A stretch of 64,000 nucleotides of DNA from a virus. Below, in pieces: positions 39,760-47,382 of the stretch. How positions within the stretch are numbered: position 1 is the first letter of the stretch; the number at the start of each line of letters is the position of its first letter. The stretch lies in the UHGV virus genome UHGV-1343746; one strand, 5' to 3'. The position numbers and the translations under genes are program-made. The notes beneath the pieces were generated by a model, which did no database searches, was not told the DNA's origin, and worked only from the letters and a program-made list of their open reading frames with translations.

Positions 39760-39966
39760 TTATTCAGAAACTTCTTCAGATTCCTGTTTAGGTTCTACAC
39801 CAAACTTTTCATCTACTAAATTAAGAAGTTTATCCATCGTTGCTTCTTGTGGGTTAATACCAGTTGCAACAATTAAACGTTCAGCCACAGCCATTACAGT
39901 TGCCTGAAGCATCTGAGCCTGTTTCTGAGTTTCATATAGTTCTTTGTAAACATTAGTCTCGTTCAT
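39760..39966 (-). CDS. hypothetical small protein upstream of terminase
   Basis: 68-aa acidic ORF with SD GGAGAA. Confidence 0.4.
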   Translation of the reverse strand: MNETNVYKELYETQKQAQMLQATVMAVAERLIVATGINPQEATMDKLLNLVDEKFGVEPKQESEEVSE

Positions 39967-40002
39967 TGTATTTCTCCAAAATTAAAGTTATAGTGATTCT
40001 CC

Positions 40003-40028
40003 TGAAAAAAGACGGTGCAGAGACCGTC
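40003..40028 (-). terminator. terminator-like hairpin
   Basis: minus-strand GACGGU...ACCGUC followed by UUUUUUCAGG. Confidence 0.4.
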
Positions 40029-40091
40029 AAGGAGAAACCACAATGTATGCCAGAGACATACTGTATAGGCCTTCCTATAAAGTATAACTCT

Positions 40092-40153
40092 ATAAAAAAG
40101 CCCTGTCTAAAAATACTCTCCGGTAGCGAAAGGGAGAATACTCATAGCAGGGC
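40092..40153 (-). terminator. terminator-like long hairpin at 3' end of tRNA cluster
   Basis: GCCCUG...CAGGGC enclosing inner helix, followed by UUUUUUAU on minus strand. Confidence 0.45.
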
Positions 40154-40185
40154 ATAATAACTTTGAGAGAGATATTAATATAAAT

Positions 40186-40261
40186 TGGAGTATCGGAAGG
40201 GACTCGAACCCTCATAAACCTGTTTTGCAGACAGGCACATAACCATTTCTGACACCGACAC
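40186..40261 (-). tRNA. tRNA-Cys(GCA)
   Basis: manual fold: sense T-loop TTCGAGT, anticodon loop CTGCAAA, 7-bp acceptor stem, CCA encoded. Confidence 0.7.
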
Positions 40262-40267
40262 ATAATT

Positions 40268-40360
40268 TGGAGGAAGATACCAGACTTGAACTGGTACGCC
40301 GATTTCTCGGTTACTGGCAGTTTAGCAAACTGCTCCCTTACCTTTTAGGGTTAATCTTCC
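40268..40360 (-). tRNA. tRNA-Ser(GCU), long variable arm
   Basis: T-loop TTCAAGT; anticodon loop TTGCTAA; ~93 nt with variable-arm hairpin. Confidence 0.7.
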
Positions 40361-40361
40361 A

Positions 40362-41096
40362 TTATTTGTTCAGAGCTTCTTTCATCTCTGGAGTTGCGAT
40401 AGTATCAATCACACCAGTTTTACATGAATCATCAAACCAGCTTGGTAGAACATTCGCAAGGAAACCATTAATATTTGTTTTCAGGTATTCTGCAATCAGT
40501 GCTGCTTCATCTGCAATCATCTGAGTTACTTCATTAGCATATGCAGTAATCTTTGCAATACCCTCATTAATCGCTGTAACGGCCTGTGTAGCGAGTTCAG
40601 AGATTGTATCTAGTCCTTGGTCGATTGCATCTTGCAAATCGCTTAGAACGCTATTTACAGCGTCTATGGAGGTATTAATCAAATCCATCGCTTTATTACC
40701 GTACTCGGTAGCTACGCCCATGATACCGCTAAACGGTGTACATCCAACCTGTTCACCTGCTGCTCCCATAACGTTAGAGTAACCTTTAGCTACTTGCATA
40801 CGTTGTGAAAACTCATCTACAGACTTTTGTCCATACTCAGTGAGTGTACTTGTCGTTGAAGTTGTACTTCCAAGGCTTGTTGTGAAGCTTCCTAATAAGG
40901 CTGTTGTCAGTCCAGCAGCAACTAAAATCTGTTGTGTGGCTGGGTCTGTTACAGAACTAATTGAGTTAACTAATGATTGAGAGGCAGCTATAGTACCACC
41001 AAGAACTGCTGCACCAGTAATAAGAGGGTTTGAAAAACCATTACCAGTTTTAAGGAGATTAAAAATCTCTTTACTTTGTTCTGTCATCTCTTTCAT
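40362..41096 (-). CDS. Ala/Ser/Thr-rich protein with hydrophobic segments, embedded in tRNA cluster
   Basis: track ORF trimmed to ATG at 41096 because the listed N-terminus overlaps tRNA-Phe. Confidence 0.45.
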   Translation of the reverse strand: MKEMTEQSKEIFNLLKTGNGFSNPLITGAAVLGGTIAASQSLVNSISSVTDPATQQILVAAGLTTALLGSFTTSLGSTTSTTSTLTEYGQKSVDEFSQRMQVAKGYSNVMGAAGEQVGCTPFSGIMGVATEYGNKAMDLINTSIDAVNSVLSDLQDAIDQGLDTISELATQAVTAINEGIAKITAYANEVTQMIADEAALIAEYLKTNINGFLANVLPSWFDDSCKTGVIDTIATPEMKEALNK

Positions 41097-41114
41097 TATG
41101 CACCTATAAAGTTG

Positions 41115-41189
41115 GTAGCCCATCGGGATTTGAACCCTGTTCTCATGTTTTTCAGACACGCGCTTTAACCATATAAGCTAATTGAGCTA
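41115..41189 (-). tRNA. tRNA-Phe(GAA)
   Basis: T-loop TTCAAAT; anticodon loop CTGAAAA; acceptor TAGCTCA/TGGGCTA. Confidence 0.65.
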
Positions 41190-45093: not shown

Positions 45094-45159
45094 TATACCC
45101 GCAATTCTTAATGACCAGACCAAATCTTTTTTGGATTTCTATGCGCGAAATTGAAAAAT

Positions 45160-45188
45160 TTGTTTGCTGTAATTGGCCTTCTGTCAAA
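45160..45188 (-). repeat. conserved tRNA-spacer motif, copy 3 (variant)
   Basis: TTTGCTGTAATTGGCCTTCTGTCAAAA. Confidence 0.45.
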
Positions 45189-45190
45189 AC

Positions 45191-45268
45191 TGGCATTCCC
45201 GAAGGGACTTGAACCCTCAAACCACACCTTGAAAGGGTGTTGACTTTACCTAATTTGTCTACGGGAAT
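45191..45268 (-). tRNA. tRNA-Glu(UUC)
   Basis: T-loop TTCAAGT; anticodon stem ACACC/GGTGT with loop CTTTCAA; perfect acceptor stem. Confidence 0.7.
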
Positions 45269-45274
45269 ATAATT

Positions 45275-45351
45275 TGGTCTCCATTGAAGGACTTGAACCT
45301 TCGGCCTTACCGCCCCAAACGGAACGCTCTACCAAGCTGAGCTAAATGGAG
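45275..45351 (-). tRNA. tRNA-Pro(UGG)
   Basis: T-loop TTCAAGT; anticodon loop TTTGGGG (G37); perfect acceptor stem. Confidence 0.65.
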
Positions 45352-45378
45352 ATAATCTTTTTAACAACCTATGTAACA

Positions 45379-45408
45379 ACTATAACACTATTTTTTAGTG
45401 TCTGTCAA
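45379..45408 (-). promoter_or_regulatory. sigma70-like promoter TTGACA-18-TATAGT for tRNA cluster
   Basis: minus-strand TTGACAGACACTAAAAAATAGTGTTATAGT about 30 nt upstream of tRNA-Pro. Confidence 0.5.
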
Positions 45409-45516
45409 GAGGTTTTTTAAAATAATTTGATTTATTTCAGAAAACTTCTTTTTCGTTTCTATGTAGAACATATTAAAGGGTATTAAACACTTTGTCAATA
45501 CCCTTTTTAAAACTTT

Positions 45517-46932
45517 TTACCAATCGTAGCGTTCAATCATTACTGCTTTGAGCATTACGCTGATAGGGTCAAACTTCTCACCACCAAGCAAAGCTTTTAA
45601 AGTGGCTGGAGAGAAACCAGATACCATTGCTACACCGTTATCCTTTACAGACACTTCGCAAGTACCATTACGGTTTGCTAAGTACCAGAATACCAGTTGT
45701 GGCATCTCATATCCAGCTTTCTTGTACTTTTCTTGAATTGCTTCAAAGTTAGTACGACCATCTGCTCCATCAACCTGATTGAACTGCATATCAGAGAAGA
45801 TGATAAGCTTACTAGGCATCTCTTTCTGAGTCAAGTTGTTTTTAACACCAATCTCAAGGATTCTTGCAAAAGCAGCTTGTAGGTCAGTTGAACCATATTC
45901 TACATGACTCTTTACTTGACGTAAGCGAGTCTGTAAATCACCACTCAATGTGATGAAGTGAGGTCTGCTAGAGTAAACCATCAATTCATCTTTAAAGCAA
46001 CCTGTATTACGTTCTGAAACGTACAGGGCTAAAGATACACCAATGTCTAGCGCTGTAACAGAACCATGTCGCTCCCAAGTCATAGATGAAGATACATCTG
46101 CCATGCACAGAATGTTTTCACCATCTTTCATCCAGTTTGGTAAAGCTTTCCACTGCTCATTTGCAACGGTTGCATTACCATAGCCAACTGACTTTGTAAT
46201 GTCGTAAGGGTAGACTGCACCAGCATTAATCTTTGTCTCACCTTTAGTCAGTGCTGCAACGTATGCTGCATAACGCTCACCATCTTTACGACTGAAGAGT
46301 TTTTGATAACGTGCAGCAGCCAGTGAAGGAAGCTTACTGTAATCAATCTCTCCGAACTCATTTGCTGAAATCTTTTGTTCAACAGTGTCAGACAGTGCTG
46401 ACAGAAGAACTCGATACTGCTTCTCTGAAAGATTTGCAAATTTACAGAAACGACGAACAAAACGCATGTGTCGTGATTTTACTCGTGGTAACCATTTTGC
46501 TGCCAGAGCCGATGTTGCAGGGTCTAACAGTGCCGATTCTAAATGCTTGAAAGCATCTGTTTCGTAACGTGTACCAACAAAGATTTTAAAGTCATCATAA
46601 CGACCTAAATCAGAAATCTTGTCCATGATACGTAACACTTGGAACTCATCAAGAATCCCGTCAGAGATTGCTTTAGTAAGAGTATAACGGAACGCTTTAC
46701 GCTCACCCATACCTTCTCGTGCATCTCGCATATGTAACAGGATTCGAACTGCTACATCAATATCTTCTCGCATTGCCTTGTAAAACAAGTTTGGAAGAAC
46801 TTCTACGTTTGTTCTGCTTGAGCCAGCAGCTTTGTAGAAATCTACCAGTGCAGACATTGAAGATGTGTGGTTAACAGCACCGTTTTCAGTTAAACCTGCA
46901 TGTAGATGCGAGTGTTTAAATAATTCGCTCAT
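45517..46932 (-). CDS. vWA-domain protein with N-terminal helical domain (TROVE/Ro60-like architecture, unconfirmed)
   Basis: 471 aa; MIDAS-type DxSxS motif (MADVSSSMT) in C-terminal half; adjacent to tRNA cluster. Confidence 0.5.
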   Translation of the reverse strand: MSELFKHSHLHAGLTENGAVNHTSSMSALVDFYKAAGSSRTNVEVLPNLFYKAMREDIDVAVRILLHMRDAREGMGERKAFRYTLTKAISDGILDEFQVLRIMDKISDLGRYDDFKIFVGTRYETDAFKHLESALLDPATSALAAKWLPRVKSRHMRFVRRFCKFANLSEKQYRVLLSALSDTVEQKISANEFGEIDYSKLPSLAAARYQKLFSRKDGERYAAYVAALTKGETKINAGAVYPYDITKSVGYGNATVANEQWKALPNWMKDGENILCMADVSSSMTWERHGSVTALDIGVSLALYVSERNTGCFKDELMVYSSRPHFITLSGDLQTRLRQVKSHVEYGSTDLQAAFARILEIGVKNNLTQKEMPSKLIIFSDMQFNQVDGADGRTNFEAIQEKYKKAGYEMPQLVFWYLANRNGTCEVSVKDNGVAMVSGFSPATLKALLGGEKFDPISVMLKAVMIERYDW

Positions 46933-47010
46933 ATTAATTCTCTCTCTCGTTAGAATGTTTTGGTGAGACAGACTCTAACGTTTGATTTAGAACCTGTCAA
47001 CACCTTTTTA

Positions 47011-47382
47011 TTATTTTTTCAGAGTTGCTACAGCAGAGAACGTTGGTTTGTTCTCCTGTGCTCCCTGACCTCCATTTTCAGAAGGTTTCTTACTATCTGC
47101 TGCAATTGCTTTCATCTCACCTGCTGAGTGAGTCATGATGGTTTTACCAGCTTCCATCATGGACTTTAAGTTTACATCTTCAGCCTTTAATCCGAACTCT
47201 GCAAGCTTGTCAGCATTACGTGTGACAATGGCCTCAAACAGCTTTGCAGCATACTCTGCTGAGTTATCAATAGTCAACTGTGCCTTGACCAGTGAACTCT
47301 TGTTACGTGAGCCTTTGGGTCTACCTGATGGGTTACCAGATTGACCTTTCTTGAATTGGCCTTTGTTTGTTCGTTTCGTCAT
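47011..47382 (-). CDS. small basic protein with GNPSGRPKG motif; candidate small terminase subunit
   Basis: N-terminus MTKRTNKGQFKKGQSGNPSGRPKGSRNK; first gene of minus-strand late operon. Confidence 0.35.
   Translation of the reverse strand: MTKRTNKGQFKKGQSGNPSGRPKGSRNKSSLVKAQLTIDNSAEYAAKLFEAIVTRNADKLAEFGLKAEDVNLKSMMEAGKTIMTHSAGEMKAIAADSKKPSENGGQGAQENKPTFSAVATLKK

Follow-up and report, generated by a model that had tools for sequence, protein, structure and literature searches.

Which gene of a Felix O1-type phage encodes the small terminase subunit (TerS), and where does it stand relative to terL, the gene of the large subunit (TerL)? Felix O1-type phages are put to use in the typing of Salmonella, in biocontrol and in therapy. 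Descriptions since 2010 credit them with a large terminase only (PMC3185647), a statement repeated for Alteromonas phage V22, in which no TerS was found either (PMC7289586); in ICP1, whose TerL is related, TerS was still unidentified in 2024 (PMC11417361). The Felix O1 paper found no TerS, called the divergent junction of the locus considered here 'odd' and did not link the open reading frame (ORF) 41 to packaging (PMC3185647). Nor does the Pharokka-annotated genome of Felixounavirus H12 hold a gene annotated as terminase small subunit. We analysed a stretch of 64,000 nucleotides from the virus genome UHGV-1343746 (the window), in which the first conserved gene past a strand switch encodes a basic protein of 123 amino acids (aa) with a DUF5681 domain. 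We infer, with somewhat better than even confidence, that this protein is the small terminase of the phage, for which it is a good but unproven candidate; joined with a stable uncoupling from terL by a tRNA array and with transcription that is not that of a single operon, the proposal still falls just on the favourable side of even.

A reading of the letters alone (the sequence-only reading) had picked out the same protein as the best small-terminase candidate, had placed it first on the minus strand after a divergent promoter region, and had taken the roughly 7 kb up to terL for an accessory island inserted into a terminase operon. Its gene map proved accurate: the 123-aa ORF, the vWA gene, the HNH gene and TerL all lie co-oriented on the minus strand at the coordinates it gave, 7,257 bp separate the end of the 123-aa gene from the start of TerL, and the strand switch is accompanied by a reversal in the sign of the GC skew at ~47.5 kb. 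Its choice of candidate was upheld by DUF5681 genes upstream of TerL in other phages, by a protein homologous over the core in the relative L157, and by the lack of any annotated rival. The window phage is a Mooglevirus of the subfamily Ounavirinae, related to Salmonella phage Felix O1, as its nucleotide sequence and gene order are nearly those of reference genomes. Over 94-95% of its length, a 12-kb query taken from around the locus is 97.5-98.1% identical to Shigella phages KPS64, Sf13-Sf19 and ESh19/20 and Citrobacter phages KMM2/KMM4; to Moogle, Michonne and Mordin it is 94-95% identical.

The 123-aa protein matches Pfam DUF5681 (PF18932) over residues 7-73 with 52 bits against a gathering cutoff of 27.5 (E 1.1e-13), as the same model matches 23 of 24 aligned homologues, and it falls into phrog_4114, a PHROG family of unknown function. 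It is basic (isoelectric point, pI, 9.95), and its basic N-terminal arm carries the conserved core K-G-x-S-G-N-P-x-G-R-P-K-G-S-R-N, with residues K12, G13, N17, G20, R21, P22, G24, S25 and N27 invariant in the DUF5681 alignment. The top profile match in the PDB was the AT-hook peptide of HMG-I/Y (PRGRPKGSKNK against GRPKGSRNK), near-identical in the core at an E-value of only 0.17; the P-x-G-R-P-K-G-S-K/R-N-K core comes near to identity with the second AT-hook of that protein. Set against HMGA, the G-R-P residues are invariant in the DUF5681 family and the motif sits in a predicted disordered, basic segment, whereas S, N or A replaces the first Arg of the canonical R-G-R-P and the motif occurs as a single copy after an invariant K-G-x-S-G-N-P. 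An AlphaFold2 monomer model predicts disorder over residues 1-27, helices at 28-54 and 72-97 and a disordered tail, with a mean predicted local distance difference test (pLDDT) score of 72.6.

Direct homology to solved structures or known small terminases was sought and failed in PDB, NCBIfam and Pfam searches. Using phmmer and profile searches of the PDB, no known TerS was retrieved and the AT-hook peptide alone surfaced; the NCBIfam search gave no TerS match, a Pfam scan of 24 DUF5681 family members returned no TerS family and nothing beyond DUF5681, and Foldseek of the model against the PDB gave no match with E <5, other fold searches being likewise empty. No assignment of DUF5681 as TerS turned up in Pfam, PHROGs or NCBIfam, nor in the literature that could be searched. 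Compared with known small terminases (lambda gpNu1, P22 gp3, SPP1 G1P, T4 gp16, PaP3 TerS and HK97 gp1), the protein shares the size of ~100-160 aa, and its modelled build is compatible with, though not specific to, their N-terminal DNA-binding part and helical core; the usual DUF5681 family position likewise overlaps the terL start, and the family pairs with different TerL families. It differs from them in having a disordered AT-hook-like arm instead of a winged helix or helix-turn-helix, in the lack of detected sequence or fold similarity, and, in the window, in the position of its gene 7.26 kb from terL behind an early-looking promoter.

The evidence that carries the assignment comes from gene context in other phages. 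We followed 61 loci on IMG/VR viral contigs in which a DUF5681-motif ORF (typically 104-123 aa) had a traceable downstream gene, taken as the next same-strand ORF of at least 200 aa. The DUF5681 ORF is usually overlapped by 8-50 nt by this next long ORF, which matches Terminase_3 in 48 of the 61 loci, so at least 48 of the 61 are followed by TerL; Terminase_6N, Terminase_6C and a T7-type RNaseH domain were also matched among the downstream ORFs. The DUF5681 gene likewise lies just upstream of TerL in the metagenomic contig L006 and in Leptospira phage LE4. A place next to terL, as known for small terminases, is therefore found for family members elsewhere and not in the window. Within the TerL clade of the window phage, the metagenomic relative L157 (TerL 43% identical) encodes a 244-aa DUF5681 protein (5929-6663) which ends 8 nt before TerL, with six tRNAs upstream of the gene, not downstream, and a long ORF in the portal position after TerL. 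Against the Ounavirinae profile the L157 protein gave an hhalign probability of 95.6% (E 1.3e-8) over residues 12-92, that is, the motif and both helices; it also has an extra N-terminal domain of ~80 residues ahead of the DUF5681 module. In Barbavirus (TerL 34% identical) a DUF5681 homologue stands ~1 kb upstream of TerL with no tRNAs between, and the Barbavirus and Ounavirinae proteins are reciprocal best matches and each other's only relatives in the phage collection. Three prophage-like loci (L009, L010, L012) have a ParB-methylase gene ahead of DUF5681, followed in L009 and L010 by a 470-aa ORF; L012 ends inside the gene after DUF5681.

The same context bears on a different function, which we hold possible but doubtful, namely that the DUF5681 protein is a small AT-hook-type regulatory or architectural DNA-binding protein, acting for example on the divergent promoter region, on an early-to-late switch or on read-through of the terminator ahead of terL, while packaging recognition would fall to the TerL N-terminal extension or another protein. 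The basic arm, which matches a eukaryotic architectural DNA-binding motif, is indeed the sole alignable part shared with most family members, yet an overlap with the TerL start in dozens of unrelated lineages, with different TerL families, is unexpected for a general regulator, and in L157 it is the core-homologous protein that stands adjacent to TerL. The TerL extension named in this proposal comprises residues 1-75, lies ahead of the ATPase domain and has no Pfam match; it could contribute to DNA or TerS binding. This stretch of ~75 residues is unaligned in the marine, Pakpunavirus and Barbavirus TerL, in keeping with this proposal.

Directly upstream of TerL in the window lies another small gene, encoding a 68-aa protein. 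If this were the real small terminase, DUF5681 would be unrelated to packaging. Its immediate position, its conservation as phrog_4397 and the late class of its Felix O1 orthologue ORF51 (PMC3185647) speak for it, but we consider it very unlikely because the protein is acidic (pI 4.4; 13 D+E against 6 K+R) and narrowly distributed, with homologues of 60-71 aa detected in Ounavirinae only, namely in Felix O1 (56% identical) and Arno18 (25%). It had no Pfam or NCBIfam match, and at the equivalent position Pakpunavirus has no gene and the marine relative an HNH-like ORF. The 68-aa gene is probably the first gene of the packaging/morphogenesis operon proper.

How the DUF5681 gene came to stand apart from terL was addressed by synteny. 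Felix O1, phiEa21-4 and Arno18 share the order divergent junction, DUF5681, tRNA array, DUF7217, small ORF and TerL, while marine contigs whose TerL is 41% identical have DUF5681, eight tRNAs, an HNH-like ORF, TerL and portal. The order DUF5681, tRNA array, TerL was found in all Ounavirinae examined and in contigs with TerL 39-45% identical. Among 27 IMG/VR relatives (TerL 39-69% identical, at least 3 kb of sequence upstream of TerL), 24 carry 6-27 co-oriented tRNAs ahead of TerL; a DUF5681 hit was obtained in 13 of the 27 and precedes the tRNA array in 12 of these 13. Immediately ahead of TerL, tRNA arrays stand in Pakpunavirus and Otagovirus as well. Felix O1 genes 41-52 constitute the same locus (ORF41 with DUF5681, ORF42 with DUF2828, tRNAs and HNH genes, ORF49, ORF51 and ORF52 as TerL), and Sf13, Moogle and phiEa21-4 have equivalent regions. 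The window differs from Felix O1 in having 26 tRNAs against 22, and one HNH gene at another site against three elsewhere in the array.

These comparisons decide most of the island question. It is improbable, in our estimate, that a contiguous terS-terL late operon was recently split by a foreign island of vWA, tRNA and HNH genes and still forms one late operon from 47382. The co-orientation of all genes would agree with such an event, as would the adjacency of DUF5681 and TerL in L157 and most other phages, the truly recent insertion of the HNH gene, the lack of the vWA gene in Kolesnikvirus and Arno18, and the treatment of Felix O1 genes 41-79 as one transcription region (PMC3185647). The array, however, separates DUF5681 from TerL in every Ounavirinae genus examined and in the distant contigs alike, and the block carries internal promoter-like sites and predicted terminators. 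Signs of a recent island in composition and flanking repeats were sought and neither was seen: the G+C content is 0.38-0.43 within the block against 0.37-0.42 outside, and no direct repeats flank the block, the only repeats found being tRNA-derived or internal spacer repeats. Absence from relatives with an empty site, as expected of a recent insertion, was found for the HNH gene and in part for the vWA gene, and not for the tRNA array. The accessory island of the sequence-only reading therefore holds for the HNH gene and, in part, for that of the vWA protein; for the tRNA array it is largely refuted, given that relatives show the same layout and no sign of insertion. By synteny, the position of the array between DUF5681 and terL is old and conserved, and no recent event put it there. 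It is plausible that the TerS-like gene was parted from terL long ago, with L157 and Barbavirus showing unsplit or less split states.

The tRNA compartment is a conserved yet plastic part of the genome plan. Large virulent phages such as T4, T5 and KVP40-like phages carry clustered co-oriented tRNAs together with small ORFs, HNH homing endonucleases and host-type promoters. The array in the window is like these clusters in its co-orientation, its interspersed small ORFs, its HNH gene and its predicted host-type promoters, but its position is fixed: it follows the TerS-like gene and precedes terL, where the structural block begins, and this position is kept across Ounavirinae and their marine and metagenomic relatives.

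Promoters and terminators were called as consensus matches and are to be read as sequence predictions, not as transcript maps. The sequence-only reading had also drawn a late operon starting at 47382, which as one unit is not supported, internal sigma-70-like promoters and two predicted terminators being present in the block. Promoter-like sites between the first gene and terL lie at 47000, 45498, 45408, 44536, 43485 and 43022. On the minus strand, TTGACA-N15-19-TAnnnT occurs at seven sites in 43.0-47.5 kb against two in the 24-kb structural block, and such sites are also clustered in the presumed early region 58.8-63.4 kb. Felix O1 and phiEa21-4 carry the promoter-like sites at matching places; the Felix O1 equivalent of the gap between the 123-aa and vWA genes carries TTGACA-18-TAAAGT. 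Ahead of the DUF5681 gene itself stands a double TTGACA, which occurs only three times in the 64 kb (4878, 47531 and 58794, all on the minus strand). The tandem motif reads TTGACA-N6-(C)TTGACAA(N)GTGT after an A-run, its copies at 4878 and 47531 stand at strand-switch junctions, and it may mark a separate type of promoter in these phages, perhaps an early one. The divergent junction is shared by Felix O1; there the equivalent of the 47531 promoter is listed as P41, and the bidirectional terminators t42/t43 of Table 2 correspond to the hairpin after the vWA gene (PMC3185647), which is identical in both phages. This hairpin contains a perfect TTGACA -35 followed by a -10-like TAATAT, so that terminator and next promoter overlap.

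The second predicted terminator, just ahead of the 68-aa gene, is recognisable in Felix O1 and H12 by its unchanged stem, the loop being different, while phiEa21-4, Arno18 and the marine contig L003 have a sequence-unrelated hairpin and T-run at the equivalent position. The position of a terminator before the TerL-proximal gene is thereby kept in five lineages, a conservation of the predicted signal that would be hard to explain otherwise; the Felix O1 paper does not list a terminator before ORF51 (PMC3185647). The promoter-like site at 40109 precedes the 68-aa and TerL genes together with two hairpins within ~55 nt, an arrangement conserved in Felix O1 and H12. This promoter-hairpin-terminator layout (40011-40109) resembles lambda PR'-tR' and, by analogy, suggests regulated read-through into the late genes. 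With a predicted terminator before the 68-aa gene and terL, the packaging/morphogenesis unit most likely starts, in effect, at ~40.0-40.1 kb. In the noisy Felix O1 RT-PCR (reverse transcription PCR) data, several island ORFs fall into the 5-min class, ORF41, ORF42 and ORF52 into the 25-min class, and ORF51 and ORF53 into the 60-min class (PMC3185647). A regulatory role of DUF5681 would be in keeping with its early-looking promoter, with the leader before the TerL-proximal gene and with the peak of the Felix O1 orthologue at 25 min rather than late, but Felix O1 TerL belongs to the same 25-min class (PMC3185647). Transcriptome papers on Pseudomonas phages contained nothing on the tRNA region.

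Several observations weigh against the DUF5681 protein as small terminase. Homology to most TerL-adjacent DUF5681 proteins was shown for residues 1-41 alone (profile-profile comparison of the Ounavirinae proteins with the Terminase_3-adjacent group, probability 99.2%), and this shared part could be a generic DNA-binding arm. No DUF5681 homologue was detectable upstream of TerL in Pakpunavirus, Otagovirus or ICP1: the ICP1 ORFs upstream of terL lack the motif, and the 107-aa protein of Pakpunavirus Adele, with a 'KGGRP' N-terminus and an equivalent position, was rejected as a homologue at an hhalign probability of 0.5%. The structure model is modest at its mean pLDDT, and a helical hairpin is no specific fold. 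The promoter of the gene shares the double-TTGACA kind with two promoters in presumed early regions, a kind not usually met with ahead of a packaging gene; counted overall, consensus hits are no more numerous than expected from shuffles. The probable genome terminus lies ~9.4 kb from the DUF5681 gene, neither inside nor beside it. Finally, the only published observation on DUF5681 (PF18932) is its detection by mass spectrometry in purified virions of Salmonella phage STGO-35-1, an unrelated siphovirus, a weak hit (2 peptides, 19% coverage); presence in virions is not expected of a TerS. Together with the basic, predicted disordered arm, this would fit a virion-associated DNA-binding protein, internal or ejected. 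We regard that explanation as scarcely probable: the 17 proteins identified in Felix O1 virions do not include the DUF5681 protein (PMC3185647), the STGO-35-1 signal is faint, and the strong positional coupling to TerL would be left unexplained.

For the DUF5681 protein as small terminase, we propose the following course. TerS would recognise the phage DNA and recruit TerL. Its flexible, very basic N-terminal arm with the AT-hook-like G-N-P-x-G-R-P-K-G-S-R-N-K would contact DNA, probably in the minor groove, and the two long helices would form the core for oligomerisation and TerL contact. In Felix O1-related myoviruses the DUF5681 gene would have become uncoupled from terL by the co-oriented tRNA array; the vWA/DUF2828 gene would have been gained in the Felixounavirus/Mooglevirus lineage or lost elsewhere, and the array contents would turn over, with HNH genes coming and going between strains and tRNA number varying (8-27). 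The DUF5681 gene, the vWA gene and the tRNA sub-clusters would each stand behind their own sigma-70-type promoter, an intrinsic terminator shortly ahead of the 68-aa gene and terL would bring the tRNA compartment to its end, and the morphogenesis unit would be served by read-through or from the promoter-like site at 40109. In its widest form, the proposal that DUF5681 is a widespread TerS family with an AT-hook-like arm, not a helix-turn-helix, which in the Felix O1 supergroup is uncoupled from terL by the tRNA array and placed behind a host-type, early-looking promoter, appears to us evenly balanced between right and wrong; under it, the supply of the recognition subunit and that of the motor would be regulated separately.

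The locus itself was previously described for Felix O1, and its tRNAs, HNH genes and vWA gene are ordinary and annotated already. If the TerS assignment is true, the annotation of several hundred genomes would be fixed, and one Pfam DUF and two PHROG families would gain a function; DUF5681 would be a new family in a functional class already known, set apart by the unusual nature of its DNA-binding arm and of its uncoupling from terL. Moreover, the packaging signal of these direct-terminal-repeat phages could be mapped, which is relevant to transduction risk and engineering. The fixed place of the tRNA array across phages with TerL ~40% identical is a small but real point of genome organisation.

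Table. Genes and predicted signals between the divergent junction and the portal gene, in window coordinates.
Feature	Coordinates	Strand	Support and remarks
Divergent intergenic region	47383-47772	.	sequence, GC skew sign change
Tandem TTGACA-N6-TTGACA promoter-like motif	47531-47503	-	upstream of 123-aa gene; pattern scan
123-aa DUF5681 protein	47011-47382	-	carries KKGQSGNPSGRPKGSRN; Pfam DUF5681, phrog_4114
Sigma-70-like promoter TTGACA-17-TAGAGT	46972-47000	-	between 123-aa and vWA genes
vWA protein, 471 aa	45517-46932	-	Pfam DUF2828 + DUF7788
Hairpin, 12-bp stem, putative terminator	45475-45506	.	downstream of vWA gene
Sigma-70-like promoter TTGACA-18-TATAGT, TG extension, 11/12 matches	45379-45408	-	before first tRNA; strong
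tRNA array, 26 genes	40186-45351	-	ARAGORN, Rfam
HNH homing endonuclease	44319-44747	-	phrog_23251, E 6e-68
Promoter-like sites within tRNA array	43485, 43022	-	promoter scans
80-aa ORF	41629-41871	-	phrog_10765, E 9e-39
DUF7217 protein	40362-41159	-	Pfam DUF7217, E 4e-84
Promoter-like site TAGACA-17-TATACT	40109-40081	-	within 40011-40109 leader, ahead of two hairpins
Second hairpin, putative intrinsic terminator, GACGGTCTCTGCACCGTC + T6	40028-40011	-	GC-rich; 44 nt upstream of 68-aa gene
68-aa ORF	39760-39966	-	phrog_4397
TerL	38137-39753	-	Terminase_6N E 6e-42, Terminase_6C E 2e-32; phrog_979
Portal protein, Mu-type	36658-38124	-	Portal_Mu E 1.5e-28; phrog_113

Within the array, the estimate of about 27 tRNAs in the sequence-only reading was fair, ARAGORN giving 26 co-oriented genes and Rfam 24 of these above the gathering score plus a borderline tRNA-like hit (44007-44081, 0.2 bits below threshold). 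The Ser(tga) tRNA was scored by Rfam only via the tRNA-Sec model, and a second tRNA-Met called by ARAGORN at 45027-45103 was not listed by Rfam. A repeat copy resembling a tRNA 3' half lies at 42897-42924; this copy, the borderline hit and the second tRNA-Met are possibly degenerate tRNAs. A spacer repeat of ~45 nt, GTTTGCTGTAAACGGTCTTCTGTAAA, is present in three copies (44051-44095, 44984-45028 and 45147-45191) which adjoin or overlap tRNA-Glu, the atypical tRNA-Met and the borderline tRNA-like hit, and may be a processing signal or a duplication remnant.

Three protein-coding ORFs accompany the vWA and HNH genes between DUF5681 and TerL, where two had been counted before: DUF7217, the 80-aa ORF and the 68-aa ORF. 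The HNH endonuclease call is confirmed by its PHROG match; the gene lies between tRNA-Asp and tRNA-Tyr, which in Sf13 stand 6 nt apart with no gene between, and by this comparison it is a strain-specific recent insertion. The 471-aa protein is a vWA protein, as had been read from the sequence, because it matches DUF2828 and DUF7788 (the latter at E 6e-44) and its metal-ion-dependent adhesion site residues (D279, S281, S283, T349 and D381) are invariant among 20 homologues. Its homologues exceed 2,400 in number, and many of them come from named phages or large contigs; its PHROG name is 'RNA-binding protein'. A relation to Ro60/TROVE was unconfirmed by sequence, no PDB match being obtained by sequence or profile, and the literature on DUF2828 consisted of plant papers only. 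The gene is absent between DUF5681 and the tRNAs in phiEa21-4 (Kolesnikvirus) and Arno18 and present in L129 and L130; judged by this distribution it is a lineage-specific accessory add-on. The 80-aa ORF is Cys/Arg-rich (CGCCASH...; pI 9.7), exactly fills the gap between tRNA-Arg and tRNA-Leu and is conserved as phrog_10765. Orthologues of the DUF7217 protein are annotated in Sf13, Felix O1 (ORF49), phiEa21-4 (gp43) and Arno18 (orf73), and its true start is probably the ATG at 41096.

Elsewhere in the window, 2.3 kb at a convergent junction (55608-57898) are free of ORFs of at least 100 aa. The physical genome end is probably at ~56.8 kb because the Felixounavirus H12 record begins and ends on bases that map to ~56802-56808 and several Erwinia phage records begin in the equivalent ORF-free gap; no duplicated terminal repeat was seen at the ends of the Prophecy and H12 records. 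The likely start of TerL in the window is the ATG at 39738, as annotated in Sf13. In the Rheinheimera phage Barba9A (L002), the annotated TerL (10794-12158) begins at the equivalent of residue 110, and gp095 (10389-10532, MGRPKT...EILVIGGGV) resembles the missing TerL N-terminus up to the start of Walker A; the Barbavirus TerL gene is therefore split or mis-annotated.

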